Shown piece by piece: positions 17,301 to 62,774 of a stretch of 64,000 nucleotides of DNA. Below the pieces are notes generated by a model. The model made no database searches. It saw nothing but the letters and a program-made list of their open reading frames with translations, and had not been told where the DNA came from. Source of the stretch: Mobula hypostoma (Eukaryota); assembly GCF_963921235.1 (NCBI RefSeq), contig NC_086108.1, positions 21,204,001 through 21,268,000 of the forward strand, read 5' to 3'. Position numbers and translations under genes: made by a program. Within the stretch, counting starts at the first letter, position 1. Each line of letters starts with the position of its first letter.

Positions 17301-18370
17301 CACCTCACTATCTGCTCTAACACTCTGGTTCCCCTCCCCCTGCAAATGTAGTTTAAACCCCCCCCCCCTCCCCACCGGAGCAGCACTAGCAAACCTTCCC
17401 GCAAGGATGTTAGTCCCCCTCCAGTTCAGGTACAACCCGTCCCGTCGGAACAGATCCCACCTTCTGTGGAACAATTATCCAGAAACATGAAGCCCTCCCT
17501 CCTGCATCAACTCCTTAGCCACATATTTAGCTGCATTATCCTTCAACTTTGCACCTAACTCCCTAAACTCTCTTTGCAGGACCTCCTCCTTCTTCCTATC
17601 CACGTCATTGGTCCCTACATGGACCACAACATCTGGCTGCTCACCCTCCCTCTTGAGAATACTGAGAACTCGATCTGAGATATCGCGGACCTTGGCACTA
17701 GGGAAGCAACAGACCATCCAGGATTCTCGATCCCTCCCACAGAACCTCTTATTTGTCCCCTTAACCATCGAATCCCCTATCACTACTGCTCTCCTCTTTT
17801 CCCTCCTTCCCTTCTGAGCTGAGGCTCCTGTCTCTGTGCCAGAGACACAACCACTACAACTGGTGGGTCGTCCCCACCAACAGTATTCAAAACGGTATAC
17901 TTATTATTGATGGGAACGACCACAGGGGTGCTCTGCTCATTCTGTCTATTCCCCTTCCCTCTCCTGACAGTCACCCAGCTACTGTCTCCTGACTTTTAGG
18001 GGTAACTGTCTCCTTGTAACTCCTGTCTATTTCTGCCTCTGCCTCATGAATGATCCGAAGTTCATCCAGCTCTAGCTCCAGTTCCCTAACTCGGTTTGTC
18101 AGAAGCTGCAGCTGGATTCACCTTTTACAGGTGTAGTCATCAGGGACAATTGTGCTCGCCCTGACTTCCCACTTACTGCAAATGGAGCACTCGACTGCTC
18201 TAACTGCTGCCTCCATTACCTACCCCTGTTAATTAGATTAATTAAAGGAACTTACCCGGCCTTACCTCACTGGGAGCAGGCTTGTCCTCAGCCTCTGCTC
18301 TTACTCTGTCTCCCACTACTCCGTCACCCGCTCCGTTAATCTGCTCGCTTTTTAAATTCTCCCACTATCT
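14325..18370 (-). mobile_element. Near-full-length CR1 LINE (ORF1 zinc-finger/SGNH esterase; ORF2 APE endonuclease and RT), disrupted
   Basis: ORF1 starts near 18216 with a CxxC motif and has IGDSMV, VHVGTND and DGLYLN. ORF2 has NARSIRNK, ETWL, YRPP, YMDFSKAFDKV, GVPQGSVLG, KFADD and RRMRDDMIEVYKI. 3' (TTCTATG)n tail at about 14325-14340. Several stops and frameshifts. Confidence 0.93.
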
Positions 18371-19355: not shown

Positions 19356-19443
19356 AACATACATCAAAGTTGCTGGTGAACGCAGCAGGCCAAGCAGCAT
19401 CTATAGGAAGAGGCGCAGTCGACGTTTCAGGCCGAGACCCTTC
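19356..19443 (-). mobile_element. 88-bp Penelope-derived mini-insertion, truncated in the hammerhead core
   Basis: Nearly identical to the 44342 insertion, with the same 3' end. No clear TSD. Confidence 0.75.
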
Positions 19444-27788: not shown

Positions 27789-28052
27789 TTGCTATGGGAC
27801 GATGACAAACTGAAAGCCGTGTCCGAGGGCTCGAGTTGCCGATGCCAATGTGTGTTTAGACCCCTGGGCCGGGACGCCTGCCGCCGGATGGAGGAAGGCA
27901 CCGGCAGCTCGGAGGACTCGTACACGATAGAAACCATCAGCTCGGGCCCGCACTGTAAATGTACCTGCCTCGCCCCGCCCTCGGCGCTCGGTCCCTGCCA
28001 CCAGCCAATCAGATTGCAGAAGCCCCGGGAGGCGGCGGGCGGCGGATTCAAG
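27789..28052 (+). CDS. OLFML2B: OLFML2B coding exon 2 (Cys-rich N-terminal region)
   Basis: Acceptor gcctctag|TTG. Translates [31 protein letters not shown]...[26 protein letters not shown]...RLQKPREA, matching the recalled OLFML2B motif [31 protein letters not shown]. Donor AAG|GTTGGT. 264 nt, phase 0/0. Confidence 0.95.
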
Positions 28053-30055
28053 GTTGGTTGTGAGGCTGGCTGTGTTGGCAAGCAAGTACCGGGGTTGTGA
28101 GGAGAGGGCGTCTGCTTGGGAAGGTATTTGGGAAAAGTGGGTACTGGAAGGCAGGGAGAAAGGGACACACATTCTTCACGGTGGCACCAGTCTCTGGAAG
28201 TGATCCACGACATCGATTGATCACATCTCCCACCAGCAGGATTGGCGTGGCGTCACCTAAGAACTCCCCCCCCCCCACCTTTCCAACCGCCAGCTGTTAG
28301 TCGGGTGCAACACCAAGCATGGTCGCCACCTGACATCATATGAAAAGTAAATCCTTTGGCTCATGGTCCTCCCCCCACAGCGTGCATTTGTTTAACTAGG
28401 CAGATTAATAGTTTGGCACAGACTAGATGGGCCAAAGGGCTCGTTTCTATGCTGTAGTGCTCTACTAGCTGTACTAAAGTGTTCTGGATATGAGGAACCT
28501 GCAGCTTGCAACCACTTCCACATCTCTTCTTCTCCCCAGATATTAATTCCTGCTTTTTTTTATTAAGTGCAATCATGAACAATAGTCAGATCAGAAATGC
28601 TGATCAAGTCAACTAGTTCCCAAAGAGAACTCTGATAGGCCAATCAGATGGTTCACTGCTGCTCAGCGATAGAACACAAAAAAATAACAGGCACGAGGTC
28701 TCTAGCCCCTGTACCCCAGAAACACACCTGAGAGGTGTGTGGAGGTATGTGCTATACATGACCTGATCTAAAAGCATCATGTTGACTCATAACAGATCGT
28801 GTTCACGGTGGAACAGCTTAGTCAAGGATGGGGTGATCAACTCAGATGGACAAATTATACCTCCACTACCCCAAAACAAACTTCAGAGGCTAGATGTACC
28901 TTGTAAACATTTGCAATCTAATTCCACAAGCAAGTTTAAGGCAGGTTACATAAAATGGTTACCAGTGCAGTGGGGCTCAGTGCTAACGATTAGAAAGTTA
29001 CAAACAGTTAGGACAGGGTTCCATTCCTGAGAACTGTCCATAACTAGGAGTTAAATTGGAAATGAATAAAAAGTGTGGGGGAGGATCACAGAAACAACTG
29101 TGATGGGACAGCAAACAGGTGCAGGAGGAGCAGCCACCATCTGGCCTTACTGATTCAAAAGAATAATATCACAAAGGGGAGGAGGAGTATATAGAGGCTT
29201 GCATGCTGTCAAGTGGAAGGTGAGATAAAGAGATAATTCATATAAAGGTGAACCCGACAACAGTTATATAGATGGGAAGTTACTCATAATGAAAGATTTT
29301 CAGTGTGAGTAAACATTTCATACAAAAACAAACTCAACTGTCAACATTGAGCTCCATTTCAGTCTAATGGCTTAGTGTCCTAAATCACAGAAAAGTATGG
29401 AAATATACTTTATGTTATAAATTTGACCTGAACTAGAGTTTTGCTAAATTGAAGAATGAGTTCACTTTTCTCTTATTTCCCTTTGGGAATATGGCCAGAC
29501 AGGAAGTAGTATCCGGTAGAACTGTTTGAACGGAAATCCTTTGTGCCTTCTAAAGAATCTTCCCAAAGCTCCCTCGAATATGTCCTTTTCACATTGGGAA
29601 GTTACACCTTAGCTGATGGCTAAGGATAAACTGTAAAGTACATTCAGGAATTCTTGGAATGATCAACTTGATGCAGTCCAATGATGCTAAAACTGACTGA
29701 GGAATTGATCGGGATGGACAACCTTGTTTCTGACCTATTTTGCAAAAGATTATTGAGTATCTCTTAAGGTGGGGATGGGGACAATAGAAACAATTGTTGA
29801 TTTTTAGGTTCAAGACCCAATGCAGGGTCAACAATTCCTGATTCTCAGCAGCTACTGCTCAACCCAGTGAATTCCTCCAGCAGTTTGTTTTTTTTTCACA
29901 CACAATTCTGTTTATAGATGGTACAAGTTCAACATGTCTGATCTGGGTCTATTGCCTTTGGTGTGAAAGGTCGTCTTTGAAAACTTGATCTCAATAAACC
30001 ATAAAAAAGACCCAACGATAGTACCACAACAGGTAAAGCACTAGCCAAAACTTAA

Positions 30056-30134
30056 CTCGGCCTGAAACGTCGACTGCGCCTCTTCCTATGGATGCTGCTT
30101 GGCCTGCTGCATTCACCAGCAACTTTGATGTATG
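30056..30134 (+). mobile_element. 79-bp Penelope-derived mini-insertion, truncated within hammerhead stem II
   Basis: 14-bp TSD tagccaaaacttaa at 30042-30055 and 30135-30148. Confidence 0.85.
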
Positions 30135-31799
30135 TAGCCAAAACTTAAAATTGTCACCAAAACTTATAATTGTCTTTAAGCTCTTAATGTCCAAGTTTAC
30201 CAGCTAAACAGTCCAGAAACCAAAGTCTGCACAGACATGTGAAACAAAAATAGATCTGTAGACATCTTATGAAAAGATTTCTAATCAATCTCTCAGCAAG
30301 AGAAAAAAATCAGGTGAATGAACAAAATCCATTTATTCCTGGTGTTTGTAATCTATATTGTATGTGAGATCCATTTCCACAACCGGTAGCCAATTATTTT
30401 TAATAAGTATTCACTGTAACACTCTGTCTGTAAATCAGATTAGTGGCTTCAATTTGTCACTGTTGTTCAGGGTTAAACTGAATTGGAATGTACTAGACTC
30501 TCTGTAGGGATTGTCACTATAATGACCTCAGTTGACAAAGCACCCCTGAAATGGGATAGAAAACAAGCATAGCTGGAACAGACAGACTGCTTTGGAAGTA
30601 CAGTATGATGCTGCAGTAGTCAAGAAGTGCAACATGCACAATCATTCAACAAACCAGGGCAATGTTGTGTTGGCATCACATGAGGGTTGCTTGCGGGCAT
30701 TAACTCAACGGTTATTTCTTCAGAAGAGAGAAACACAGAAAGGAAAGTCATAGTAAATGCAGTATGCTAAAGGAACCCAGGAGCAGCAAGCTAGTATAGC
30801 TGGCATAGCTGCAAAGTATTACTCAGGAATCACTGAGAAAGGCCTCCATAAATCCAACCACAATCCTTTCATCAGTTCCAATTACGTACTTGGAGCCTGG
30901 AAACATGAACAAAGTCCAACTAGACACACTCTGGAACTATGCATAAGGGTGTTTCATTCTCTGGCATCCTCGTGTTCCACTTCCACTCTGACAGCTGCGA
31001 AAACCTTCTCTCGTTGGAAGCCATTCAACTGGAGTTCTTTTTCTTACTTTATTGATTTGTCTTTGTGTTTTGTGTTACCAATTGAAGAATGTTCAATGTC
31101 CTTTGTTTTTGTAAGGTGTGCCTCGGGAAGGCTATGGATTGTTCCAAGAATATGGGTATCATTAGACTCTAGAAACCATCCCCCCCACCCCCCACCACCG
31201 GCTATCAGCCAAGTTATCTGAAAGAAGGCCAGATAATGCATTGCAATCAAGATGATATCCTGACTCCAAGATAGTTGAGAGGTTCACAGAAAGCAACTCA
31301 CAAGAGAGAAGCTATTGAATCTGAAAGATCAGTTGCTGTTCAGTCAGTGTTTAATTGCACCATTTTAATGTTTTGGCCAGGGCTGGAGTTTGAAACTGGA
31401 TGCTGGAGTGATGTAGTCCATTACCCTTTCCCTTCCGACCTAACCTTGGGGAAGGTCAACCAAACACCATACTCATAAATAATGTTTATTTAGGCATCTG
31501 TTAGGAAACCACAGAGATGGTGAATGCAATAAGATGGTGATCTTCAAAAATTAGGGCCAAAGCATTTGTTGTGTTTGATAACTCTGCACCAACATACTAC
31601 CAGATCCACAGGTGAATGTTAATTTACTAATTCAAAATGTGAAACAATTCATTGAATAAGTTATTGCTCTATAGCTCCAAATTTTCCCCCAGACTCCCTA
31701 TTCCTATTCATGAGAAAAGCTTGTTTCTTTGAGACTAGATTAAGGGTAGTTATTCCTCACAGTTCCAATTACCCCGAGTCTGATGCTATTCTTAGATGT

Positions 31800-32008
31800 T
31801 GGCAGTGTGGAACTTTTGTGTTCTCCCTGTGACTGTGTGGGTTTCCCTGATACTCCGGTTTCTTCACAAGTTGGTCGCTATACATTTTCCCCAATATTTC
31901 AGTGGGTGGTAGGAAATTCAGGCTGGCGATGATGGACACATAGGTGAAAATAAGCTACTGGGAAATAAGAGGATGCATTGGATTGAAGGAGTTGTTCTGA
32001 GAGTTGGC
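31800..32008 (+). mobile_element. V-SINE (HE1-like) relic
   Basis: gtgtggaacttttgtgttctccctgtgactgtgtgggtttccc...ctccggtttc resembles the recalled V-domain. Confidence 0.6.
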
Positions 32009-32018
32009 ATAGAGAGAC

Positions 32019-33661
32019 ACAGGGCGAAGACCTTAAGGACTCAGCAATCATTACCATCTACAAAAGGAAAGGCGATCGATCCGAATACAGAAATTATCGT
32101 GGAATTTCCCTGTTAGCAACAGCAGGAAAGATCCTCACCCGCATCATGAACAACCGGCTCAAGCCTTTAGCTGAGAAGATCCTTCTGGAGACACAAGCTG
32201 GTTTTAGACCATTGCGTGGAGCAATTGACATGTTCTTCACAATGCGACAGCTACAAGAAAAATGTTGTGAACAACTTCAACCTTTGTACATGGCATTCAT
32301 TGACCTCACCAAAGCCTTTGACTCGGTATCAAGGGAACTCCTATGGGATGTCCTACCCACCTATGGATGCCCTGAAAAGTTAATTTGAATCCTGAGGCTC
32401 CTCCACAATGGCATGCTTGCCACAGTCATGGTCAGCAACAGTAACTGTGACTCTTTTCAAGTTAGATCAGGAGTAAAACAGGGATGCGTGATTGCCCCAA
32501 CTTTGTTCACCATCTTCATTGCGACAATCATCTACATTATCAAGGACGACCTACCCCCAGGAATCGAAATTGTCTACAGAACAGATGGCAGACTTTTCAA
32601 TCTTGCCCATCTCAAATCCAAAATAAAGATATCCATGAGTTCCCTCATCGAGTTCCAATACGCAGATGACAACAGTGTTGCAGCTCTTTCAGAAAACCAC
32701 CTACAACAGATTCTGACTACCTTCAACTGTGCATACACGAAACTTGGACTTATCATCAATTCCAAGAAGAGTAAGATCACCTATCAACCGTCACCAATTG
32801 AGACAAATCGGATAGAACCATCATTTCAGCTTGCCGAAACAACCCTGGAAAACGTTGACCAGTTAACGTATCTTGGAAGTCACTCTCCTCCGATGTCGAC
32901 CTTAATGACGAGATCCAACATCGTCTTAAATGCGCTGGAACAGCTTTTGGATGTCTCCGAACAAGAGTCTTTCATGATTGTGACATCCGAACAGACACCA
33001 AAATGTTAGTGTACAAAACAGTGGTAATCCCAATGCTCCTGTATGCATCAGAAACCTGGACAACATACCAACGACATTTGAAGGCACTTGAAAAGTTCTA
33101 TCAATGCTGTCTTCGAAACATCTTAAATGTCAGCTGGGAAGATAGAAGAACCAATGTCAGTGTGCTAAATGAAGCAAAAACAACAAGCATTGAAGCCTAC
33201 GTCATCAAGAACCAACTAAGATGGAGCGGTCATGTTGTTCGGATGAAAGACGAATGTCTGCCGAAACAGATCTTCTAATCCCAGTTTAATGAAGGCAAAC
33301 ATAAAAGAGGCGGACAACAGAATAGATTCAAATATGTCTTAAAAGCCAACATGAAGAAATGTAACATCAATATCAACAATTGGGAAACCAATGCCAAGGA
33401 CAGGAAACTCTGGCAAGCCATCATCCGAGAAGGAACAGCAACTTTCGAAGCCAACAGATGTGCAGAGTTAGAAGAAAAGAGAAGAAAATGGAAAGAGAGG
33501 CAGCAACAACCAAAGCCCAATCTGCCATCTGGAACTACCTGTCCTGAATGCGGAAGAACTTTCAAAGCCAAGATTGGACTCATAAGCCACTTGAGAGCCC
33601 ATAAGTAGATCAACAGAATGAAGGCCGTCATCCTCGACCTCAAGGGATAGCCACAACGACG
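32019..33661 (+). mobile_element. 5'-truncated RTE-clade LINE
   Basis: RT motifs NYRGISLL, QAGFR, FIDLTKAFDSV, GVKQGCVIAPTLF and QYADD; C-terminal CPECGRTFKAKIGLISHLRAH. Short acgacg tail. 10-bp TSD atagagagac at 32009-32018 and 33662-33671. Confidence 0.92.
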
Positions 33662-35408: not shown

Positions 35409-36268
35409 ATGCAAACACAAGGAAATCTGCAGACGCTGGAATTTCAAGCAACACACACAAAAAAAATGCTGGTGAACGCAGCAGGCCAGGCAGCATCTAT
35501 GGAAAGAGGTACAGACCCTTTGTCAGGACTAACTGAAAGAAGATATAGTAAGAGATTTGAAAGTGGGAGGGGGAGATCCGAAATGATAGGAGAAGACAGG
35601 AGTGGGAGGGATGGAGCTAAGAGCTGGAAAGTTGATTGGCAGAAGGGATATGAGGCTGGAGAAGGGAGAGAATCATGGGACGGGAGGCCTAGGGAGAAAG
35701 AAAGGGGGAGGGGGGAAGCCCAGAGAATGGGCAAGGAGTATAGTGGGAGGGACAGAGGGAGGAAAAGGAGACCGAGAAAAAAATTAATAATAACAAATAA
35801 ATAACAGGGTACGAAGGGGAGGTAGGGCATTAACGGAAGTTAGCGGCATGAACATTGACTTCTCTAATGCCCCACCTCCCCTTTGTACCCCATCCGTTAT
35901 TTATTTATTTTCTCTCTCCTTTTTCTCCCTCTGTCCCTCTCACTATACTCCTTGCCCATCCTCTGGGCTTCCCCCTCCCCCTTTCTTTCTCCCTGGGTCT
36001 CCTGTCCCACCTGTCCCTTGATCCTCTCCCTTCTCCAGCCTCATATCCCTTTTGCCAATCAACTTTCCAGTTCTTAGCTCCATCCCTCCCCCTCCTGTCT
36101 TCTCCTATCATTTCGGATCTCCCCCTCCCCCTCCCACTTTCAAAACTCTTAATATCTCTTCTTTCAGTTAGTCCTAACAAAAGGTCTCAGCCGAAACGTC
36201 GACTGTACCTCTTCCTATAGATGCTGCCTGGCCTGCTGCGTTCATCAGCATTTTTTTGTGTGTGTTGC
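35409..36268. mobile_element. Inverted pair of Penelope terminal repeats
   Basis: 35409-35850 (-) and 35855-36268 (+) are reverse-complementary copies of the same terminal region. Confidence 0.8.
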
Positions 36269-37115
36269 TGTCACTTACTCACTCAAGAGCTGGAAGAATA
36301 ATCCAGGGAACACAAAAAAAGAGAAAAGAAAGACGCTGAATTAATGAAACACTATTTCAGAAATATCCCACTGCTTTTCTTGTGCAGTAAATTACATTGG
36401 ACAGTTATTGTTGTTACTTTGGGGAAGATGGTTGCCATTTAACACACAGCAGGTCACAGAAAGTGATAGGATTAATGATCAATAGTTATTCTCAGTGGGT
36501 AACTGGTTTGTTGACACTGGCTATTGTGAAGGCAATCAATGCTGTCAGAGTATCATTCCCATAAAAATTGTTTTCGAGTCAGATGGAATATGATACCAAC
36601 AATAAAAATATCAGTGAGAAATAATACAGCATGTTGGTGTGTTGATTATTTTTGATGGCAGGAGGTGGTGAATTAGCTGAATCTGTGAAGTTCTGTAATG
36701 AAGATAGTGGTGTTTCTTATTCCGTAATTCTTTTTCACAATGGAAATACAGTTTAAAGAAAACATTTGCATTGATGAAATTTAATTCCTAATTCATTCTG
36801 AAGCATTATATATTAGGTCTAAAGTAACATCGTGCTTGCTACTTGATCAGTAGAACTGTCAACATCGGGAACTGTGACCTCTCACTTCTCTTCTTCTGCA
36901 TGGCAGAAGTTTATTGGCGATTTGTGATTCCAGCCTTTCAATCATTTGTTATTTTCTAACATTTGTTCCATTTTAATTACATCTGTCAAATTAAGCCAAA
37001 CCCCATGTGCTTCCTTAGCTGTTAGTGAAGATTTCAGTTCACTTTTTGATGAAGAGCAAGTGAGTTCTCCAGCTTCTATCCTACTTCAATATCAACAATA
37101 CGTTTATGGGTCATT

Positions 37116-39965
37116 TAGAACATAGAACATAGAATAGTACAGCACAGTACAGGCCCTTCGGCCCACAATGTTGTGCTGACCCTCAAACCCTGCCTCCCAT
37201 ATAGGCCCCCACCTTAAATTCCTCCATATACCTGTCTAGTAGTCTCTTAAACTTCACTAGTGTATCTGCCTCCACCACTGACTCAGGCAGTGCATTCCAC
37301 GCACCAACCACTCTCTGAGTAAAAAAAACCTTCCTCTAGTATCCCCCTTGAACTTCCCACCCTTTACCTTAAAGCCATGTCCTCTTGTATTGAGAAGTGG
37401 TGCCCTGGCGAAGAGGCGCTAGCAATCCACTCTATCTATTCCTCTTATTATCTTGTACACCTCTATAATGTCTCCTCTCATCCTCCTTCTCTCCATAGAG
37501 TAAAGCCCTAGCTCCCTTAATCTCTGATCATAATGCATACTCTCTAAACCAGGCAGTATCCTGGTAAATCTCCTCTGTACCCTTTCCAATGCTTCCACAT
37601 CCTTCCTATAGTGAGGTGACCAGAACTGGACACAGTACTCCAAGTGTGGCCTAACCAGAGTTTTATAGAGCTGCATCATTACATCGCAACTCTTAAACTC
37701 TATGCCTCGACTTATGAAAGCTAACACCCCATAAGCTTTCTTAACTACCCTATCCACCTGTGAGGCAACTTTCAGGGATCTATGGACATGTACCCCCAGA
37801 TCCCTCTGCTCCTCCACACTACCACATATCCTGCCACTTACTTTGTACTCTATCTTGGAGTTTGTCCTTCCAAAGTGTACCACTTCACACTTCTCCAGGT
37901 TGAACTCCATCTGCCACTTCTCAGCCCACTTCTGGATCCCATCAATGTCTCTCTGCAATCTTCGACAATCCTCTCGACTATCTACAACACCACCAACCTT
38001 TGTGTTGTCTGCAAACTTGCCAACCCCCCTTTCTAACCCCACATCCAGGTCGTTAATAAAAATCACGAAAAATAGAGGTCCCAGAACAGATCCTTGTGGG
38101 ACACCACTAGTCACAATCCTCCAGTCTGAATGTACTCCCTCCACCACGACCCTCTGCCTTCTGCAGGCAAGCCAATTCTAAATCCACCTGGCCAAGCTTC
38201 CCTGGATCCCATGCCTTCTGACCTTCTGAATAAGCCTACTGTGTGGAACCTTGTCAAATGCCTTACTAAAATCCATATAGCTCACATCCACTGCACTACC
38301 CTCATCTATATGCCTGGTCACCTCCGCAAAGAACTCTATCAGGCTTGTTAGACATGATCTGCCCTTCACAAAGCCATGCTGACTGTCCCTGATCAGACCA
38401 TGATTCTCTAAATGCCCAGAGATCCTATCTCTAAGAATCTTTTCCAATAGCTTTCCCACCACAGATCACTGCTCTATAATTACCCGTACTATCCCTACTA
38501 CCTTTTTTGAACAAGGGGACAACATTCGCCTCCCTCCAATCCTCCAGTACCATTCCCGTGGACAACGAGGACGTAAAGATCCTAGCCAGAGGCTCGAAAA
38601 TCTCTTCCTCTGCCTCGTTGAGCAGCCTGGTGAATATTCCGTCAGGGCCTGGGGACTTATCCATCCTAATGTATTTTAACAACTTCAACACCTCCTCTCC
38701 CTTAATATCAACATGCTCCAGAACATCAACCTCACTCATATCGTCCTCACCTTCATCAAGTTCCCTCTCATTGGTGAATACCGAAGAGAAGTATTCATTG
38801 AGGACCTCGCTGACTTCCACAGCCTCTAGGCATCTCTTCCCACCTTTATCTCTAACCGGTCCTACCTTCACTCCTGTCATCCTTTTGTTCTTCACATAAT
38901 TGAAGAATGCCTTGGGGTTTTCCTTTACCCTACTTGCCAAGGCCTTCTAATGCCCCCTTCTTGCTCTTCTCAGCCCCTTCTTAAGCTCCTTTCTTGCTTC
39001 CCTGTATTCCTCAATAGACCCATCTGATCCTTGCTTCCTAAACCTCATGTATGCTGCCTTCTTCCACCTGACTAAATTTTCCACCTCACTTGTCACCCAT
39101 GGTTCCTTCACCCTACCATTCTTTATCTTCCTCACCAGGACAAATTTATCCCTAACATCCTGCAAGAGATCTCTAAACATCGACCACATGTCCATAGTAC
39201 ATTTCCCTGCAAAAACATCATCCCAATTCACACCCGCAAGTTCTAGCCTTATAGCCTCATAATTTGCCCTTCCCCATTTAAGAATTTTCCTGTCCTCTCT
39301 GATTCTATCCTTTTCCATGATAATGCTAAAGGCCAGGGAGTGGTGGTCACTGTCCCCCAGATACTCACCCACTGAGAGATCTGTGACCTGACTCGGTTCA
39401 TTACCTAATACTAGATCTAGTATGGCATTCCCCCTGGTCGGGCTGTCCACATACTGTGACAGGAATCTGTCCCCGACACACTTAACAAACTCTGCCCCAT
39501 CTAAACCCTTGGAACTAATGAGGTGCCATTCAATATTAGGGAAGTTAAAGTCACCCATGATAATAACCCTGTTATTTTTGCACCTTTCCAAAATCTGCCT
39601 CCCAATCTGCTCCTCTGTATCTCTGCTGCTATCAGGGGGCCTATAGAATACCCCCAAGAGAGTAACTGCTCCCTTCCTGTTCCTGACTTCCACCCATGCT
39701 GACTCAAAAGGGGATCCCGCTACATTACCCACCCTTTCTGTAGCTGTAATCGTATCCCTGACCAGTAATGCCACCCCTCCTCCCCTTTTTCCACCCTCTC
39801 TATCCCTTTTAAAGCACTGAAATCCAGGAATATTGAGAATCCATTCCTGCCCTAGTGCCAGCCAAGTCTCTGTAATGGCCACTACATCATAATTTCATGT
39901 ATGTATCCAAGCTGTCAGTTCATCACCTTTGTTCCTGATGCTTCTTGCATTGAGGTACACACATT
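37116..39965 (-). mobile_element. 5'-truncated CR1 LINE of the same family as 14325-18370
   Basis: ORFs 38947-39882 (APE: GDFN, LDL, SDH), 38431-38940, 38178-38462 and 37419-38147 (RT). (TTCTATG)n tail. Confidence 0.93.
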
Positions 39966-41097
39966 TATCTTGCACTGTAGGCACCCCTTAATTATAAATT
40001 AATTGATCTCCAATATTCCACGTCCACTTTGCTAGAGAGTCGTTTCTTCATGGGTTTTGCAAGATTCCACCAAAAACAAAAGTCTGCAATGCAGTAATTT
40101 GGAGCAAGGAAAAAAAGACCCCTGGAGCAAGTGTTTGTTTTTAATGCTCCAGATTAACTGACTTCACTTAAAGCAAACATTAAATATGGGACATTACGCA
40201 AATATTGCTAGTAATATTCAGTAGGTCGGGCAGCATCTGTGTTAATGTTTCAGGATGATGACCTTTCATCAAACTGCAGTTGTGCCATCCTTCACTGTAA
40301 GTGAATCATAATCCTGGAAACTTCCTAAATGACAGCATGGTTGAAGTAATTGCACTGTAAGAGTTCAGCGGGTAGCAGTAGTTCACCGTGATCTCTGAGT
40401 GAAATTAGGGACTGGCCTTGTTAGCAACACCATTATCTTAAGTACAATAAATGTGCCACCAGACTAGAGGCAACAGCCAGATGGAGCCCAAATTCATGCA
40501 TTATCTATAGAGGTCAGCAATGAATCACTTCATTTACTGACTTGTGTCGACCTCTCAAATCCTCAGGAATGTTTAGCAACCAGAAAATAATGTTCTAATT
40601 CACAACTGTATGTGGGCAAAACTGAGCTGAGCTCACACAGATAATTTGCTGATGATGTGAAATTTGGTTCGGTTGGGGTGTCTATAATGTCAATGCCAGA
40701 GAAAATAAACAAAGGAAAAGGGAAAAAAATGCCAAGAACAGGAACCAAACAGGGAGAAAGAGAGAAGGAAAAAGATACACAGTAAGAAGGCCATTTGGCC
40801 CATTCTGTCTGTGTTGACTGTAGAAACCATCCAGTTTGATCCCACTTCCAGGACTAATTCTGTGTCTCTTCGGCTTACATTTCTTTATTACACATCCAAC
40901 TACTTTTTAATGAGATGATGGTTGCTGCCTCCCCTATTGGATAGTCAGTTCCAGATCCCTTCTAGCTTCTGGATGAAAAATATCCATTCCTTCACCTTCC
41001 TCCTAACATTTGTTTTTTTTTTACAGTTTTGCTAAAGCAAATAGATCCTTCCCATTTCCCCAGTCTAGGGCCTTCATTATTTTTTTCACTTTAATTA

Positions 41098-42735
41098 TAG
41101 TGCCAATAAAAAGTATTCACCCCCTCGGAAGTTCTTGTGTTTTATTGTTTTACAATATTGAATCACAGTGGATTTAATTTGGCTTTTTTGATACTGATCA
41201 ATAGAAAAATACTTTTTTTTGTGTCAAAGTGAAAACAGATCTCTACAAAGTGATTTAAATTCATTACAAATCTCAAACACAAAATAATTAATTACTTAAG
41301 TATTCACGCCCTTCAAGTCAGTATTTAGTTAATGCACCTTTGGTAGCAAATAACAGCCTTGAGTCTGTGTAGGTAGGTCTCTTACAGCTTTGCACATCTA
41401 GACACTGCAATTTTTCCCCATTCTTCTTTACAAAGCTACTCAAGCTCTGTCAGATTGCATGGGGATTGTGAGTGAACAGCCCCTCTCAAGTACAGCCACA
41501 TATTCTCAATTGGATTGAGGTCTGGACTCTGACTTGGCCATTCCAGGACATTAACTTTGTTGTTTTTAAACCATTCCTGTGTAGCTTTGGCTTTATGCTT
41601 GGGGTCATTGTCTTGCTGGAAAACAAATCTCCCAAGTCACAGTTCTCTTGCAGATTGCATCAGGTTTTTCTGCATGATTTCCCTGTATTTGCTGCATTTA
41701 TTTTATTCTCTACCTTCACAAGCCTTCTAGGACCTGCTGCAGTGAAGCATCCCCACAGCATGATGCAGCCACCACTATACTTCACGGTAGGGATGGTGTG
41801 TATTTGATGATGTGTAGTGTTCAGTTTACAACAAACATAGCAATTAATCTGATGGCCAAAAAGCTCAATTGTGGTTTCATCAGACCATAGAACCTTCTGC
41901 CAGCTGACTTCAGAGTCTCCCACATGCCTTCTGGCAAACTCTAGCCAGAATTTCATGAGAGCTTTTTTCAACAGTGGCTTTCCACTCTTTGCACCTCTCC
42001 CATAAAGTTCCAACTGGTGAAGCACCTGGGCAACAGTTGTTGTATGTGCAGTCTCTCCCATCTCAGCCACTGAAGCTTGTAGCTCCTCCAGAGTTGTCAT
42101 AGGTCTCTTGGTGGCCTCTCCCACTAGTCCCCTTCTTGTACAGTCACTCAGTTTTTGTGGATTGCCTGTTCTAGGCAGATTTACAGCTGTGCCATATTCT
42201 TTCGATGAATGACGTAACTGTACTCCAAGGGATATTCAGTGACTTGGAAATTTTCTTGTATCCACCTTCTGACATGTGCTTTTTGATAACCTTTTCTCAG
42301 AGTTGTTTCAAGTATTCTTTTGTCTTCATGGTGTATTTTTGTAGTTTAGGATACTGACTCACCAGCAGTTGGACCTTCCAGATGCAGGTATATTTTTACT
42401 ACAATCAATTGAAACACCTTGATTGCAAACAGGTCTCCAAAAACAGATTTCCAAAGTCAGATTTCCATTGAACTACTGATGTGACTTTTAAAACCAATTG
42501 GCTGCACCAGTGATGATTTGGTGTGTCATATTAAAGGGGGTGAATAGTTATGCAATCAATTATTTTGTGTTTTATATTTGCAATTAATTTAAGTCATTTT
42601 GTAGAAATTTGTTTTCACTTTGACACAAAAGAGTCTTTTTGTCAAAAATTCCAAATTAAATCCACTGTGATTGAAGGTTGTAAAACAATGAAACATGAAA
42701 ACATCCCAGGGGCTGAATACCTTTTATAGGTACTG
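41098..42735 (-). mobile_element. Second full-length Tc1 copy of the same family, in OLFML2B intron 2
   Basis: TA-flanked, same TIRs. Peptides VLWSDET and KYSGGCIMLWGCF. Frameshifted. Confidence 0.92.
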
Positions 42736-43361
42736 TAAATCTTCCGTTAGCCTCTACTGGTCCATTGAAATCAATACAAACCTTTCCAAACTTCACTTAT
42801 TACTAATTTTTTCCAATCTTGGCAACATTCTTGTAAATCAGAAAGGGCTCAGATCTCTAACAAAGTGCACTTGGCAGGGAAGAAATAAAGGAAGTTAATA
42901 CCCCCAATGTGAGTTTTCTTGATGCAATGTTTGGAACATACCCTGGCCATGACCAACATGCTATTTTGTAGAAGAACATAACAAGGCAACAGTTTTAATC
43001 TGGGTATTGGCATGGAGTACATCTTCCATGCATCTACATGAGGATCAAACATTACTCCCTTCAACACAGCCATTAAATCAGGCAGCCACCCTGGTTTTAA
43101 CTATTCCAGTATCCACAAAACTCTTACAACCACTTATTATAATGATTATTGGAGGTCAGTATTAATATTTCTTAATTTTTACCATTAGATAAATACTTAT
43201 TGTCTTTTAATATATGTTGGCAATACCAAAGAAGAATGTCATTTTCTCTTTAGTCCAGTTTGTCTCCAGGCTAGTGTTTGATTGTGTAACTTTGTGATGG
43301 TGACCTGTGATTTATACTTTCAATTAAGTATAGCTTCAACACGTTTTCATTTTGTCTACAG

Positions 43362-43469
43362 CTCTCCTCAATGATGGAACTTTTAGAAAGCACCGTCTTT
43401 GGATTGGATCTCTTAAAGTTGCACTCCGTAACAATCAAACTCATTAAACATATTGAAAAACTGGAAGAG
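43362..43469 (+). CDS. OLFML2B: OLFML2B coding exon 3 (coiled-coil region)
   Basis: Not in the ORF track; read directly. ttttgtctacag|CTC... gives [42 protein letters not shown], matching recalled [36 protein letters not shown]. 108 nt, phase 0/0. Confidence 0.95.
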
Positions 43470-44341
43470 GTAAGATACTTGTTTACTTCTTGACTCAAAT
43501 ATTTTCCAACCCTCAGTCTTAAAGGTCAAGACTTAAAAACTTTAAACAGGACTTTGAGCAGGACCATAGTTCCATGGGATCTGTCCTATTCTCTTGTAAC
43601 TTGTTGAAGTAAGTGCAGTGCATACAGGAGCATAATAGCTGGCCCACACTAAGCCATAAAAGTCAGTGCAGGTATGTTTTCTACAACAGAGGGAAATCAG
43701 AGCGAGAGTCACTGAGTCTCAACTTTCAGCCTTTGTCATGGTTTGGTTTAGAACTACATAGAAAAGCCGAATCTAAAAATGTTCTGCTGCTCTCAATACT
43801 CCAAATGAACTCCCTCCAACCTAACTTCATCTTACCCAACTACATTATCTTTCTATACTTTTGTTTCCATGCCTGCCACACCTGCAAACCCCTCCCCCGT
43901 TACCTCTAATCCTGCCTCCAACTTTAATTCTCTAACTTTCCCTAATGCATCTCTACTAGTCCACTGAACCTTTCCATGTGGTAGGAGGAGCAACAATTTC
44001 ATTCCATTGGAGAGTGATATGGAAATAACCTGAAGAAGGGCATTTGGCTGAACAGGAAGAAATTTTAAGATCCTAGTGACAAAAGGAGGCTGAAAGAACT
44101 GCTGAGAAAGTTGTGCTGTCCTTTTATTGGATTCAAGGAAAATTAATCATCTGAACCTTCAGCCTATCAGACACTTGCTATTTCACTAACAGAATAGAAT
44201 TGTCCAATTGTCACCCATTACTTCATCTTTACAAAAAAAATGCTTTCTCTGTTGATGGATGGATAGGTATCAAAAGACTGCTTGATATTTTGTCAAATAA
44301 TGTCATGTCTTGTCTTTTCCTGCCTTGTATAAGTGACTGTA

Positions 44342-44447
44342 ACATACATCAAAGTTGCTGGTGAACGCAGCAGGCCAAGCAGCATCTCTAGGAAGAGGCG
44401 TAGTCGACGTTTCAGGCCGAGACCCTTCGTCAGGACTAACTAACTAA
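44342..44447 (-). mobile_element. 106-bp Penelope-derived mini-insertion carrying an intact hammerhead
   Basis: 11-bp TSD aagtgactgta at 44331-44341 and 44448-44458. Confidence 0.85.
44401..44438 (-). ncRNA. Minimal type-I hammerhead ribozyme (Penelope-associated), intact core, antisense in OLFML2B intron 3
   Basis: Minus strand reads UAGUC-CUGACGA-AGG(GUCUCGG)CCU-GAAA-CGUC^GACUA, with a 5-bp stem I and an intact core. Confidence 0.82.
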
Positions 44448-46019
44448 AAGTGACTGTAGTTTGGTAGGACATAACTACTGTAAAAGTATCAGCAACTCCC
44501 TCATCCCATTCAGGATGAGAAAGTTGCTGATGTTTGGTAGTGAGTGATTTTTGAATCGATTCAGAAACAGCCTGGAAGAAATAATTTGCAGTTAAGACTG
44601 CAATTGCAAATTATATTCCTGAATGACAATTTGAATCATTACAGCACATTTTCCTCTGCTTTTTTGTACAAAGCTTTTGCAGAGGGAGAGTTAATAACTG
44701 TACTCGACAATGCTGGAAACATTAATTGTTCTAAGCTGAAATAAACAGAGTGATTTTTTGTGAAATATTTGCATGCTTTAGAGTTCTACCTGTATTATGA
44801 TCTCATTATACCCAATTTCACATATTGATAGGATTGTGTGATTGTTATGCCTCTTCATCAAATCATTTATTTATAGGCAAATCTGTAAATTAGGAAGCCA
44901 TTCTTTGGATTGAGCACAGCAAGACTTTGTACTATTTTGTGTTGTCTGTCCAGGGAAGGTATATTACTCATTTTCAACAGTAGGGGCATATCAGATTCCT
45001 AACTATCTTCCTGAACCACGAGAACAGGTCATCTGATTCCTAAATTCCCAGAAATATTATTGTTTAATTGCAAGGTAAACTCGAAGTGAAATATTAACAT
45101 GACATAACTGCTAATTTTAAAATGGCAATTAAAACCTTTTTGCTGCTCTGATATAATTCTTCATAATTTCCATTTCGCTTAAACACCTTGAATTCTCAAG
45201 GTGAACTACCATTAAGGTCTGACTAATTTCATCATATATATCTTAAAAATTATAAATGGCAACATTGAAGAATTTTTATTAAAATTCCCATAAATCAAAA
45301 CCTGACTGTGGGAGGTAGTATGCAGGGTGTACAATAAATCTGTAATAGCAACTTCACACCTCCCCGACTGTGATTGACCATCTGTCTTAGGCTAATAATT
45401 TCCAATTGTAGTTATAAAGAAATGTGAAAATAGACAACACATTTATTGACTCACTGTAAAAGGGGCAAGCAATAATGGTTAGTGAGTGGACAGTAAAATC
45501 TGTTTCAGATTAAATGAATCTATATTTCTTCTGGCTGGGAATACAGTATATGTTTGTAAAGAAAGCTTATCTGTGAACTTGCTTATTCTCGGTGTCATCA
45601 CCTACACACTGCATCACTGCAACAACTGAATGAAGTCAGTCAACAAGGGGAAATCTTGAATCTTTCAGCATCTGTCAGAGTCTGTGAATGGAATTATCAA
45701 GCTACACTTGGCTGTTAGGTTCAAACTGAGCTACTGGATGCACTAGGCTTGTTGCACACAGAAGACAGGATGAACAGAGAGGAATGGTAGCTTAGTTCAA
45801 AGCAAAACAGAGGAACTGACCATATGGTAGAACAGGTGCTACATTCAAGTCCAAGTTTTAAGTTAAGTGGGAATATTAAAACTATTTCCCTTGATTGAAA
45901 GAAGAGGTAGATTTTTCTGAACATATTTCTTATTCTAACACCACCTGCATTTACAAGACGGGGCTCAGAATGATGGATGATATCACAAGTAGTTCCTCGC
46001 ATGCCGGCCTTACTTTTGG

Positions 46020-49200: not shown

Positions 49201-50508
49201 CTCAGCCGGCTCCACCGCTGACACCAGTCCAGCTACTCCAATTAACAAGTAGCTCACTGATGGAGTAGCCCTGCAGTACCCAATGTTCTTAGAGTAGGAT
49301 TCCCTGCTGCTGTTTAAGATAATATAGTTAAGAATATTGAGAAAACTTACCCTCTTGTTAAATATTACCTGGAGATTAAATATCACATTTGAACCAAATG
49401 GGATAACTTCACTCAACTTGCCCAATCACTGTTCCCACAACCTATGGACTCACTTTCAAGGACTCTTCATCTCATGTTCTTGATATTTATTGCTTATTTA
49501 TTTATTATTTTTTTTGTGTTTGCAGAGTTTGTTGTCCTTTGAGCACTGGTTGAACACCCAGTTGGTGTGGTCTTTCATTGATTCTATTATGATTATTATT
49601 ATTCTATGATGGATTTATTGAGTATTCCTGCAAGAAAATGAACCTGGATTGTATATGGTGACATATATGTACTTTGATAATAAATTTACTGTGAATTTTG
49701 AAGTTTGTTAATCTATGATTTACTTCTGTACCCTCAGATGTATATTGGTTCCGAAAAAGCAGACAGAATTATTAGGCCATATCTGAAAATGGAGAAATGA
49801 ACAGATGTAGAATAGAGGGGGTGAAGAGGTAATGCTGGTTGTTTATAGGTATTAACATAGATTGAATATTAATCTATTCAGCAGGATCCAGTGATCAGAC
49901 CTCCTGATAATTTATTGACCCTGTTACACTGCAAAAAGCAGTGCATTTTGTGGATATCCCTGGCATTGAAAAAGTGGCCAAGTTCAGAATGCTCTTTGTA
50001 CCCCAAAAGGGAAAAATTCTATGCTTGTTTATGCTCTGTGGCAAGTTCCATGCACTAGATTTCAATCACTTTGTAGTCAATTGGAAATAAGGAGATATGC
50101 TGAATTTATGATTTAGAGAGTAAGCTGCTCATCTTTCTTGTACAACAGCTGACAATGGTATATGTGAAGGAGCCAACAGGCAGTGTTTAGAGTTGTTGAT
50201 TAAATGTGAAGACTGCATTGCATAATGGAGTTGTAAGATAAAACCCCAGAGATTAAGAGTTCAAATACCAACCTAGCTGGTGATCTCCATTAAGTAATAT
50301 CTACTCAATGCTTAGGTAAGGAGTAATATAGGAAATGATCAAAGCTGCCTGCAGACTTTGTGTAATACCAGTGGATTAATGTGATTTTGAAATTCCAGAA
50401 ATAATCTCAGTGAAAGCTCACCAAGGACCAATCAAAAGACAGCATGGGGAAATAAGAGGAGGCAGGGTGTGTTTGTACACTGGATTATTGATCTCCCTTT
50501 CTCTCCAG

Positions 50509-50691
50509 AAGCTGACTGCAGATACTTTGGAAGGAGATAGGCCCAGTACAGACAACGTCAACAAGGCTCAGAGTAAGATGGAGAAGAAGGAAAACCACAC
50601 AACCACTTATAGCAGCCTGAAGAAAGAGATGACCGACATTGGCACAAATCTACTGCAGAGAGATGCGGCTAATACCTACACCCAGTCAGAG
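50509..50691 (+). CDS. OLFML2B: OLFML2B coding exon 4
   Basis: Polypyrimidine tract ctccctttctctccag|AAG. Translates KLTADTLEG...KKEMTDIGTNLLQRDAANTYTQSE|GTAAGC; the LQRDAAxxY motif is typical of OLFML2B. 183 nt, phase 0/0. Confidence 0.88.
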
Positions 50692-51502: not shown

Positions 51503-52845
51503 ACATAGAACAGTGCAGGCCCTTTGGCCCACATTGTTGAGTCAACCCTTTAACCTATACCGAGATCAATCTAACCCTTTCCTCCTACATAACTCTCCAT
51601 TTTTCTGTCATCCATATGCCTATCTAAGAATATCTTAAACATCCTTAATGAATCTTGAACTGACCTGCCCCTCACAAAGCCAAGTTGATTATCCTTAATC
51701 ATACTTTGCTTCTCCAAATGTTCATAAATCCTGTCTCTAAGAATCCTCTCTAATAGTTTGCCCACCACTGATATAAGACCCACCAGTCTCTAATTCCCAG
51801 AGTTATCCTTATTACCTTTCTTGAACAAAGGAATAATATTTGCCACCTTCCAATCTTCTGGCACTACTCCTGTGGCAAGTGAGGACACAAAGATCATTGC
51901 CAAAGGTGCTGCTCTTCCCTTACTTCCCATAGTAACCTGGGGAATATCTCATCGAGACTGGGGGACTTATCTATCCTCAGTTTTTTTTCAAAAGTTCCAG
52001 CACACCTTTTTCTTAACATTGACATATTCCAGCATATCAGTCTGTTCTATGCTGACCCTATATCTGTCAAGGTCCCTTTCACTGGTGAATACTGAAGCAA
52101 AATATTCATTAAGGACCTCCCTCGCCTCCTCAGACTCCAGGCGCATTTCCTCTTTTGTTCCTGATCAGTCCGACCCTCACTATAATCATCATCCTGTTCT
52201 TCACACACATGTAGAATGCCTTGGGGTTTTCCATAATCCTACTTACTAAGATCTTCTCATGTCTCCTTCTAGCTCTCCTAAGACCCTTCCTAGCTACCTT
52301 ATATCCACAGCCCTGTCTGATCCTTTCTTCCTAAACCTTAAGTATGCTTCTTTCTTACTCTTGACTAGATGTCTTGGCATCTCTTGTCAAGTCCCGGTTC
52401 CTTCACCCTACCATCCTTTCCCTGCCTAAATAGGACAAACCTATCCAGAACCATATCTAAGTTCTCTCTAAGCAACCTCCACATTTTGGAAACGAGAAAA
52501 TCTGTAAATGCTGGATATCCGAGCAACACACACAAAATGTCCTGCCAAAGGGTTCTGGCCCGAAACATCAACTGTACTCTTTTCCTAGATGCTACCTGGC
52601 CTGCTGAGTTCCTCCAGCATTTTGTGTGTATTGCTGCACATTTTGGAAGTACGTTTTCCTGAGTACATCCATTCCCAATTTATGCTCCCAAGTTCCTGCC
52701 TAATAGCATCAGAGTTCATCTACATACTGTGTCAGGAATACTTCCTGGGCACAACTAACAAATTCCAACCTATCTAAACCTTTTGCACTGAAGAGGGGCA
52801 AATCATATTAGCAAAGTTGAAGTCCTCCATGACAACAACCCTTTA
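51503..52845 (-). mobile_element. Older internally deleted CR1 fragment
   Basis: Peptides VVGKLLERILRDRIYEHLE and GKDGRVKEP; catagaa tail. Confidence 0.75.
52492..52636. mobile_element. Penelope-derived insertion with an inverted 5' segment, inside a CR1 fragment
   Basis: 12-bp TSD cacattttggaa at 52480-52491 and 52637-52648. Degenerate hammerhead at about 52539-52573. Confidence 0.8.
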
Positions 52846-58047: not shown

Positions 58048-59304
58048 ACCTTCACTTAGTGATCCTACCTTTTCTCTTTGGAGGAATAAAGGAATTTATT
58101 CCTTTATGGATTTGTTTCAAGAAGGCCGATTGATGTCCTTTGAGAAATTAGTAACTAAATACTCTCTTTCATACTCACACTTTTTGCAATATCTTCAGGT
58201 CAGACATTTTTTACAAGAATATTTAAGTAATTTCCATATATACAAGATTCTGACCTGTCAGACACTATTTTAAAAATGAACCCTTTAGTGAAAGGTTTTA
58301 TTGGGAAAATTTATAATTTTTACTATTACAACAGGATAATTATCCTCTATTTGAGATTAAGCAAGATTGGGAAAGAGAGCTTAACATGACCCTGATAACA
58401 GAGGATTGGTTGCAAATTTTGAAGTTGGTTAACTCTTCTTCGATTTGCGCCAGTCATTCTTCAATTCAATTTAAAATTGTACGTCATTATTATTTGACAA
58501 AGGAGAGACTGTCTAAAGTATTTCCTAATGTTAATAGTCAGTGTGATAGATGTAAAACTGAGATAGCTATATTGACACATATGTTTTGGTCATGTTCTGT
58601 ATTGAAACAGTTTTGGAAATCTATTTTTTCTACAATTTCTAAAGCTTTAAACATTAATATACAACCTAATAAATTGACATTTTTGTTTGGTATAATTCCT
58701 CAATATATTCATGGTATTTCTATATCAAACCAACATGTAATTGCATTTGTTACATTATTGGCTAGAAGGGCTATTTTATTGAAATGGAAAGATGCTTCTG
58801 CTCCCACTTTGATACAATGGTTCTCTCAGGTGATGCTATGTCTTAGGAAAAAATCTGAAGTCGAATTTTTGATCCTTGATTTGACTTTGAGAAAAGGTGT
58901 GGCTCTTTTGCCTGCTACTATCATTTGATTTGAGTTAATTAAGATGGTCCCCTTCTGATTCTTGGGTAAATGGATTTGGTTGGTGGATTGATGTCTTCTT
59001 TTTTATAGAAGCTTGTATGGCGTATAGCTCCGGGTTTGTGCTCCAAATGGTTTTTTTTTTCTTGTTTTTTTTTGTTAGCTGGGTTTTTTTTTGTTTTAGT
59101 TAGTAGGGGTTCTTTTTCCTTCTTTCTTTTTTCAAAAAAAAAGCTTTAACATTTTGTTTTTTTAAAATTATTATTATTGATATACTGTTTAGCTTGGTTA
59201 ATAGTTTGACTCCTATACATATTGATATATTGACTTGCTTATTTTAATATATTTTTTGTTGTCTATTTTCAATAATAATTAATAAAAAGATTTAAAAATG
59301 AAGA
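58048..59304 (+). mobile_element. Tx1/L1-clade LINE 3' fragment
   Basis: zf-RVT-like CDRCKTEIAILTHMFWSC, T-rich 3'UTR and AATAAA. TSD tgtatcttcta at 58037-58047 and 59305-59315. Confidence 0.85.
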
Positions 59305-60866: not shown

Positions 60867-61977
60867 GTAAGTGCACCAAAATGTTTCCTGTCATTGTGGA
60901 GATATGTTTTAAAGAAGAGCAACAGGTTATGAGTGAATTCAGATGTCCTGGTACTGTGAAGGTGTGAAAAATGAATCCAAGTTTCGTTCTTTCTTGCTTG
61001 ATAGAGATGAGGCAAATCTTTCCCCTTGATCATGGACATTTTCTGCATCACTGATTCATGAACCATTTCCTTTCACACATCCTCCTTACAATGCACCCAG
61101 TTACACATCTGTCTTTCATTAGTGCATTCTCACCTCCATCTTTCTTCCTTGAATGTATTTAGCCCGTTCTCACAAACTTTCTTATTTTTGTCATAGCATA
61201 GAGTGATTTATTTTGGCACAAGATCTTTGGTGATCCAGCAGTCTGAAAACAGCATTCGGGTTTGTCAAGGAAAATATTTGTCTGGGACCCTCTGAAGCTG
61301 TTGGCTGCTGCACAGTTTTGTCTGCAGAATCACATGTTTGGCTTCAGCCCAGCACTTTACAAAACAGCCACTATTACCCTTGCTGTTAAGGAAAATCAAA
61401 TCAGTTTCAATTTCTGTGCTGATCAAAATGCTGAACATACAGTTTTTTCATGCTTTATCCAGTTGCAGATAACAACTAAGGCAATGCAGAGCTTCTTGTA
61501 TTTTGCCGCTATGCACAAGCCTTAACAGCAAGCTTAGAATACCACTCCCAGTAGAGTGTAACACTATCTCTTCCAGTTCCAGTCACATTGCCAGATGTGG
61601 CCTTGGAGGAGGTCATAATTTTCAACCTCCAACCATCTCATTGCTTCACTGCTTCATCCACACTGCTTCTTGCCATTGGTTGAGATACATTCATTCCTGA
61701 AGCAGACTGCCAATCAGAATGCAGACAAATTGTTACCAGATTGGATGATTTCAGTCTGTCAGTTAACCAGCTCTTTCTCCATTGCAATTAGTTTTATTAG
61801 CAACAACCAAACTGCTCAAAGGACTTTTTTTGCCTCTACAGTATTATTGCCATTTGCTATAGCAAACATGATTTAAGATCCTGGGAATTCTGGAGGGCAA
61901 GCCATCATAAACTGCATTATTCTCTTAACAAGGATGGTCCAGTATCACATATGGGAAAACAATGAGTTTTCTAAGCT

Positions 61978-62774
61978 TTGACTACAAGAAGATAACCTCT
62001 CACTAAAGATTAAACAAGATTGGGAAAGAGAACTTAATATGACTCTTGTTAACGGAGATTGGTTGCGAGTTCTGAAAATGGTTAATTCTTCTTTGATATA
62101 TGCCAATCATTGTTTAATTCAATTTAAAATTGTTCACCGTTATTATTTAACAAAGGAGAGGCTATCCAAAATATTTCCTAATACAGACAATTATTGTGAT
62201 AGGTGTAAAAATGAAGTAGCTATTTTGTCACATATGTTCTGGTCATGTCCCTCATTGAAATCTTTTTGGAATTCTTTATTTTCTACAATTTCTAAAGCTT
62301 TGAAAATTAATTTACAACTTAATACATTGACTGCTCTATTTGGAATAGTTCCGCATCATATTCAGGGTATTTCATTTTCAAACCAACATGTAATTGCATT
62401 CGTTACATTGTTGGCAAGAAGGGCTATTTTATTGAAGTGGAAAGATACCGCTGCTCCTACACTAATTCAATGGTTTTCCCAAGTAATGTTATGTCTTAGT
62501 TTGGAAAAAATTAGAAGTAGAATGTTTGATCCCTGATTCGATTTTGAGAGAAGGTGGGGCTCTTTTGCCAAATATTATCATTTAATTTGGATTAATTTAT
62601 CTGGTTTCCTTCCAGTTTTATGTTATATAAATGTGATTTGGCGGTTGTTTTTTTTCTCTTTTATATATACTTATAGCTGATTGTAAGACGTATTGCTCTT
62701 GGAGTTGGTTCCTAATGGGTTTTTTTTGTAGTTAGTGGGGTTTTTTTTTCAGTTAGTTGGGGTTCTCTTTTTTC

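Follow-up and report, generated by a model that had tools for sequence, protein, structure and literature searches.

A minimal hammerhead motif in a recent 103-bp insertion, probably derived from a Penelope-like element, within an OLFML2B intron of Mobula hypostoma

Introduction

A 38-nucleotide stretch on the minus strand of the Mobula hypostoma genome, situated in an intron of the gene OLFML2B, reads as a minimal hammerhead ribozyme, and this raises the question of how such a motif came to lie there and whether it acts on the gene that surrounds it. The question was addressed with the 64,000 nucleotides of contig NC_086108.1 that surround the motif, referred to here as the window; all coordinates are positions within it. 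An earlier note had assigned the motif to the minimal type-I hammerheads that Penelope-like elements (PLEs) carry, a class that was already known, and had predicted that it would need to form a dimer to cleave. The analysis below agrees with that assignment. Minimal hammerheads (min-HHRs) of PLEs have been described in the literature, reportedly also by Lunse et al. (RNA Biol 14:1499).

The min-HHRs in the pLTRs of metazoan PLEs, including the Neptune elements of fish, were described in 2014 (Cervera & De la Pena, PMC4209133). In that work the monomers showed no cleavage and the dimers low cleavage, and most of the motifs were single ones in truncated copies, as is the case here. A review gives the same picture (PMC6765202), and one of nine Xenopus dimer elements was found to cleave (bioRxiv 10.64898/2026.07.22.740005). 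For the Anolis Poseidon element PAc, the hammerhead cleaved only with the protein of the element (Frangieh et al., 2024, PMC11167929), and the role of the hammerhead in EN+ Penelope elements has been described as still unclear (bioRxiv 10.1101/2021.04.23.441226). The text and supplements of PMC4209133, in the parts consulted, do not mention the ray lineage. Among the papers listed in literature searches, none described a PLE hammerhead from a shark or ray; one chondrichthyan genome is included in a retrozyme preprint (bioRxiv 10.64898/2026.07.22.740005).

Results

The hammerhead motif

Read from 44438 to 44401 on the minus strand, the sequence is UAGUC CUGACGA A GGGUCUCGGCCU GAAA C GUC GACUA. 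A minimal type-I hammerhead motif was identified at 44401–44438, with stem I formed by 44438–44434 and 44405–44401, the core CUGACGA at 44433–44427, an unpaired A at 44426, stem II (GGGU/GCCU with a CUCG loop) at 44425–44414 and GAAA at 44413–44410. Every catalytic core base is present, as the earlier note had stated, with CUGANGA, GAAA and UH (H being C17) all found, and the 5-bp stem I that it described consists in this copy of five Watson–Crick pairs. Its reading of the remaining end of the molecule also held: stem III is absent, the palindrome ACGU is in place at positions 15.1–16.1 (GAAA-C-G-UC), and C17 corresponds to 44406, with the predicted cut between 44406 and 44405.

The motif belongs to a repeat that is dispersed over the window, from which 14 copies were aligned. 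The min-HHR descriptor detected two sites, at 44433 and 5191, both on the minus strand, while each of 200 dinucleotide shuffles was without a match; with a plain pattern search there were two matches in the window, the mean of 100 shuffles being 0.00. Only two of the 14 copies thus pass the descriptor, the other intact copy being 39 kb away. Across the window copies, 80% of cells were paired in the hammerhead register as against 10–45% in slid registers, a control inclined towards the structure. The folding z-score of the motif was −1.0, and stem covariation among the 14 copies scored 0.073 against 0.088 for shuffled data, with 408 of 500 shuffles scoring as high, in a test that is weak because 12 of the 14 copies are decayed or cut. 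The hammerhead motif at 44401–44438 is a genuine one.

Stem II register and predicted folding

In the earlier structure stem II needs correction; it had been drawn as A-U, G-C and G-C pairs closing a 7-nt loop. Pair probabilities for that register were approximately 0.02, compared with 0.87–0.97 for the GGGU/GCCU register, which has a CUCG loop and leaves an A unpaired after A9. Of 13 copies that extend to this position, 12 have the A, its placement in gapped copies being dependent on the alignment. At the base of stem II the 44401–44438 copy has G.U, the typical pair of min-HHRs being G10.1-C11.1. Among the 10 window copies with letters at these positions, G.U was found in six, G-C in two older copies and A-U in one, the remaining copy being unpaired. 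It was also considered whether the CCU in stem II could be private CpG decay; this was ruled out, CCU being common to seven window copies.

When folded in isolation, the 38-mer was predicted to form a rod through pairing of the core GACG with CGUC (probability of at least 0.98; −11.3 kcal/mol), and the hammerhead-like monomer fold had a probability below 0.001. The model thus has the monomer prefer an inactive rod. With nearest-neighbour energies, a strand-swapped double hammerhead gave −12.1 and is not favoured, two monomers together coming to −22.6 and the cofold MFE to −30.9. These energies omit the tertiary contacts of the core, so that catalysis is neither ruled out nor supported by them. 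The catalytic competence proposed in the earlier note is not supported.

The 103-bp insertion and its target site

The motif lies within a 103-bp segment on the minus strand (44342–44444) which was identified as the 3′ end (pLTR) of a PLE, inserted in 5′-truncated form and without its optional tail. It is flanked by a target-site duplication (TSD) at 44328–44341, on the 3′ side of the element, which matches the pre-insertion site in two relatives, and at 44445–44458 on the 5′ side. The two 14-mers are identical at 13 of 14 positions, or may be read as a perfect 11-bp TSD followed by copies of TTAG from junction slippage; a length of 14 nt was reached by three of 1500 random flank pairs. Between the duplications there is a single copy, with no tandem array at this site.

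To examine the site in other genomes, four public sequencing runs (X1, X5, X9 and X19) were aligned over 43250–45350. Run X1, which is possibly the source of the window and hence not independent of it, contained both junctions of the insert, and no empty-site joint was present among the joints listed for it. In contigs of both related organisms (X5 and X9) the site is empty, with a joint leading from 44330 to 44448 that skips 117 bases, 11 letters being ambiguous. The flanks of X5 differ from the window at 27 of 1,984 aligned bases (1.4%) and those of X9 at approximately 4%. The insertion is therefore recent and species-specific, having taken place after the split from the 1.4%-divergent relative, and the intactness of the motif can be put down to the youth of the insertion and not to maintenance by the host. 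It should also be noted that run X9 skips 148 bp at 44895–45042 (joint 44894 to 45043), so that this intron holds a further indel or insertion.

Host gene and orientation

The exon at 27789–28007 is 99% identical to Mobula hypostoma OLFML2B, and all 15 of its matches were to OLFML2B or olfactomedin-domain proteins; a search of the ESM Atlas with exon 2 of OLFML2B gave no usable match. Using tblastn, five OLFML2B exons were placed on the plus strand from 27083 to 60868. Upstream of the insertion is the coding exon 43362–43469 (plus strand; tblastn of P0008, with AG...GT splice sites), and the next coding exon found, corresponding to amino acids 181–242 of P0008, is at about 50506–50691 on the same strand.

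The position of the motif in an OLFML2B intron, as given in the earlier note, is thus correct, but the motif is antisense to the gene and outside its pre-mRNA. With OLFML2B on the plus strand and the ribozyme on the minus strand, the pre-mRNA carries only the non-catalytic complement. In the RNA-like run X19 a contig covers 43360–43469 only, and the unique intron flanks have no coverage in this run, which speaks neither for nor against antisense transcription. Seven family copies lie within the gene span, four antisense and three sense, showing no evident orientation bias in this small sample. The antisense orientation and the absence of a tandem partner suggest that the motif does nothing at this site, and the insert at 44342–44444 is most likely inert.

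Relationship to a Penelope-like element

The relationship of the repeat to a protein-coding element is visible in sister copies. The most informative of these (5070–6189, minus strand) contains remnants of RT and GIY-YIG domains with a stop codon near 5490, a pyrimidine-rich pLTR of approximately 300 nt, an intact hammerhead (C3 at 5191) located 299 nt behind the stop codon of the GIY-YIG remnant, and a tail of approximately 35 nt. The insert is identical to this copy at 93 of 100 positions, and to the copy at 19443 at 85 of 87. An older copy (10164–11104, minus strand) has a C-x4-C-x2-C linker before the GIY-YIG domain, and its hammerhead, at about 10247, is decayed. GIY-YIG remnants were found upstream, on the same strand, for the copies at 5191, 10247, 13325 and 14046.

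In a tblastn search with the ray protein P0003, the 5191 and 10247 copies were detected with 72% and 65% identity (E values of 4e-58 and 1e-58) and with weak extension into the RT. A 96-aa remnant had seven homologues, each of them a Hypanus sabinus or Mobula hypostoma protein, and RT and GIY-YIG occur in a single chain among them. P0001, P0003 and P0004 matched the GIY-YIG family of Pfam and P0005 matched RVT_1, all just below the gathering cut-offs. Taken together, the remnants in the window and P0001, P0003 and P0005 show an RT followed by a GIY-YIG at the C-terminus, two Cys being located between its GIY and YIG motifs (CCHH). The C-x4-C-x2-C linker of the 10247 copy was also found in P0001–P0003 and fits the CX2-5CxxC trait of Neptune/Nematis.

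The shared tail of approximately 35 nt is present in five of the 14 copies, the other nine stopping before it. A tail, inverted copies, 5′ truncation, TSDs of variable length and the Cys linker are traits of PLEs and of Neptune/Nematis (bioRxiv 10.1101/2021.04.23.441226; PMC11167929), and Neptune is favoured over other clades since vertebrates had only Neptune and Poseidon elements in the preprint consulted (bioRxiv 10.64898/2026.07.22.740005). The 64-kb window holds no intact ORF of the element and no full-length copy, so the connection with a PLE ORF is made through neighbouring copies, which share at most 93% identity with the 44342–44444 insert. On these sequence grounds it is considered highly probable that the parent is a Neptune-type EN+ PLE with its hammerhead in the pLTR.

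An inverted pair of pLTRs forms a long hairpin at 35421–36269, and miRNA-like Rfam matches at 35.7–36.0 kb are regarded as spurious on account of it. In an old copy at about 1140–1150 (plus strand), a deletion runs from the core exactly to the predicted cut, which could be explained by a 2-nt microhomology. Outside the ray sequences, a 28-letter pattern of the family gave no match in viral contigs and none in metagenome contigs.

Copy abundance and a young subfamily

A total of 39,891 contigs of run X1 align to 43250–45350. Their summed depth over the insert is approximately 5.5 million as against 10–13 on its flanks; this figure does not amount to a copy number, but it indicates a hugely repeated family. 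The insert is an ordinary copy of a very abundant repeat, and the family may already be catalogued in repeat databases. This bears on a further expectation of the earlier note, namely that the motif would be missed by annotation. As far as Rfam is concerned this was borne out: a search of the whole window up to E = 5 returned 15 matches and no hammerhead. Repeat annotation, on the other hand, would be unlikely to miss a repeat that ranks among the most abundant in this genome.

At 44401, a C on the plus strand, equivalent to a U.G pair in stem I, makes up 96% of the X1 depth of related copies, so the perfect fifth pair (U-A) of this copy is a rare variant. Of the letters diagnostic for a young subfamily, at 44399 and 44378, the C at 44399 accounts for about 28% of the depth in X1 and about 1% in X5 and X9. 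Three copies in the window carry the diagnostic letters (44342–44444, 19356–19443 and 30056–30134), all of them tail-less and 79–103 bp in length. The two shorter ones, on the plus strand at 30056–30134 and on the minus strand at 19356–19443, are truncated inside the ribozyme; the former has a 14–15-bp TSD (30041–30055 and 30134–30148), and no TSD was found in the flanks of the latter.

Contigs with head-to-tail hammerhead joints (44437 to 44402, with 2–4 letters between and a unit of approximately 38–40 nt) were detected rarely in runs X1, X9 and X19, at depths of approximately 20–146 compared with approximately 5.5 million for the family. These could possibly be tandem dimers, template jumps or tiny circles. 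Among the loose contig ends listed, those at 44435–44441 might have marked truncation hot-spots; this was dismissed because their consensus letters agree with the upstream sequence of older subfamilies.

Other repeats in the window

The window also contains a number of other mobile elements. Copies at 14325–17900, at 37120–39894 on the minus strand and at 51662–52484, which are 90–96% alike and hold APE and RT remnants, are presumably CR1-type LINEs. A broken, RT-bearing LINE (31987–33608, plus strand; RVT_1 with E values of 9e-16 and 3e-13) lies in an OLFML2B intron and is taken to be RTE-like. The segments at 22402–23974 and 41095–42738, with terminal inverted repeats, are assumed to be relics of Tc1/mariner-like transposons, and those at 58317–59004 and 61976–62661 (plus strand), approximately 75% alike and with a Cys-rich motif, are assumed to be 3′ ends of L1/Tx1-like ORF2. 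An inverted repeat of 176 nt (2281–2456 and 3016–3191), 97% complementary and with 559 nt between its arms, is possibly a young MITE.

Discussion

The explanation considered highly probable for this locus is that the hammerhead is a passenger in a dead-on-arrival retrotransposition product of a Neptune-type PLE. A PLE of the ray would carry a minimal hammerhead in its pLTR, approximately 300 nt downstream of the RT/GIY-YIG ORF, and its protein would have nicked AT-rich DNA within the OLFML2B intron. Reverse transcription by TPRT would have started at an internal, "no-tail" start on the 3′ side of the predicted cut, approximately 63 nt away from it. RNA that had not been cleaved would then have been copied through the ribozyme, early termination past it after approximately 103 nt leaving the truncated insert and its 11–14-bp TSD. 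The template was probably uncleaved, since the insert spans the predicted cut at 44406/44405. In tandem transcripts of the parent element, two ACGU palindromes may form a shared stem III in a strand-swapped dimer, and cleavage of this dimer may perhaps be helped by the protein of the element. By analogy with the published PLE motifs, that of the parent element probably cleaves slowly as a dimer in such transcripts.

The motif resembles the PLE min-HHRs in being of type I, in having no stem III but a palindrome at 15.2–16.2, in its short stem I (4–5 bp in that class), in its extra nucleotide between 9 and 10.1 and in its pLTR location (PMC4209133). It differs from the Schistosoma min-HHRs, in which stem II is of 7–8 bp as opposed to 4 bp in the ray, and from the consensus, in which G10.1-C11.1 is conserved where the young ray subfamily starts stem II with G.U (PMC4209133). 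As in PAc, the hammerhead lies upstream of two RT starts that define an optional tail of 30–40 bp, the targets are AT-rich, and insertions arise from uncleaved RNA, which for PAc was found in vitro; unlike PAc, the ray element carries the additional Cys linker known from Neptune/Nematis (PMC11167929).

Other readings of the locus were weighed against this one. That the resemblance to a hammerhead is due to chance is extremely improbable and largely refuted: the unremarkable folding z-score, the lack of an Rfam match and covariation not above that of shuffles would agree with it, but the descriptor found nothing in the 200 shuffles, the cells of the copies pair far more often in the hammerhead register than in slid ones, and the motif sits within a PLE pLTR, a place in which a hammerhead is to be expected (PMC4209133). 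A working ribozyme of relevance to the host, cleaving OLFML2B pre-mRNA or an antisense RNA, would have its precedent in the intronic hammerheads of amniotes such as that of RECK, which likewise lie within an intron (PMC6155905). The perfect core and wholly Watson–Crick stem I, in a family of which so few window copies pass the descriptor, speak for such a ribozyme. However, in contrast to the conserved amniote hammerheads, the ray motif is a minimal one, runs antisense to the gene and is missing at the same site in two close relatives (PMC6155905 for the amniote motifs); it is moreover a single copy with no partner nearby, and its monomer is predicted to be an inactive rod. A function of this kind is thus judged very unlikely.

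It was also considered whether the young subfamily constitutes a mini-element of approximately 80–105 nt, non-autonomous and retrozyme- or SINE-like, which consists of a hammerhead and a signal for the RT start and is mobilised in trans by the PLE protein, as opposed to arising from full PLE transcripts by random 5′ truncation. All three subfamily copies are short and tail-less with ends within approximately 30 nt of one another, in or just before the ribozyme, two of the three have TSDs of 14–15 bp, and the difference in the C at 44399 between X1 and the two relatives points to a lineage-specific burst. The rare head-to-tail joints would also fit, and retrozymes derived from pLTRs have been reported in one chondrichthyan genome (bioRxiv 10.64898/2026.07.22.740005). 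The insert shares with non-LTR retrozymes a non-coding unit, a type-I hammerhead and a relation to pLTRs (PMC7229834; bioRxiv 10.64898/2026.07.22.740005), but retrozymes are tandem units each with a hammerhead and the ray insert is a single 103-bp copy without a tandem array (PMC7229834). Against a mini-element it also counts that there are only three copies, that the dimer joints are so rare relative to the family, and that the 5′ ends vary, two of them cutting into the core, which fits truncation or stalling of the RT at a hairpin of −11 kcal/mol. This reading is accordingly held to be quite improbable. In a related form, a PLE subfamily would be undergoing a burst in which it spreads as hammerhead-only inserts of 80–105 nt with TSDs of approximately 14 bp, the dimers recording template jumping or tiny RNA circles; this too seems unlikely. 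If true, it would represent a minimal retrozyme-like parasite at its birth from a pLTR, and the genome, its copy number being of the order of 10^5, would allow a natural test of whether cleavage by PLE hammerheads shapes insertions.

For a passenger in a truncated PLE copy, the preferred reading, the single insertion in OLFML2B is of little weight, its use being limited to that of a presence/absence marker for telling ray species apart. As a whole, the family is of modest value. It is a very young vertebrate family of very high copy number, which would allow statistics on the position of 5′ ends relative to the cut, on selection on the core and on the G.U variant of stem II, and it supplies a convenient construct with which cleavage could be assayed.
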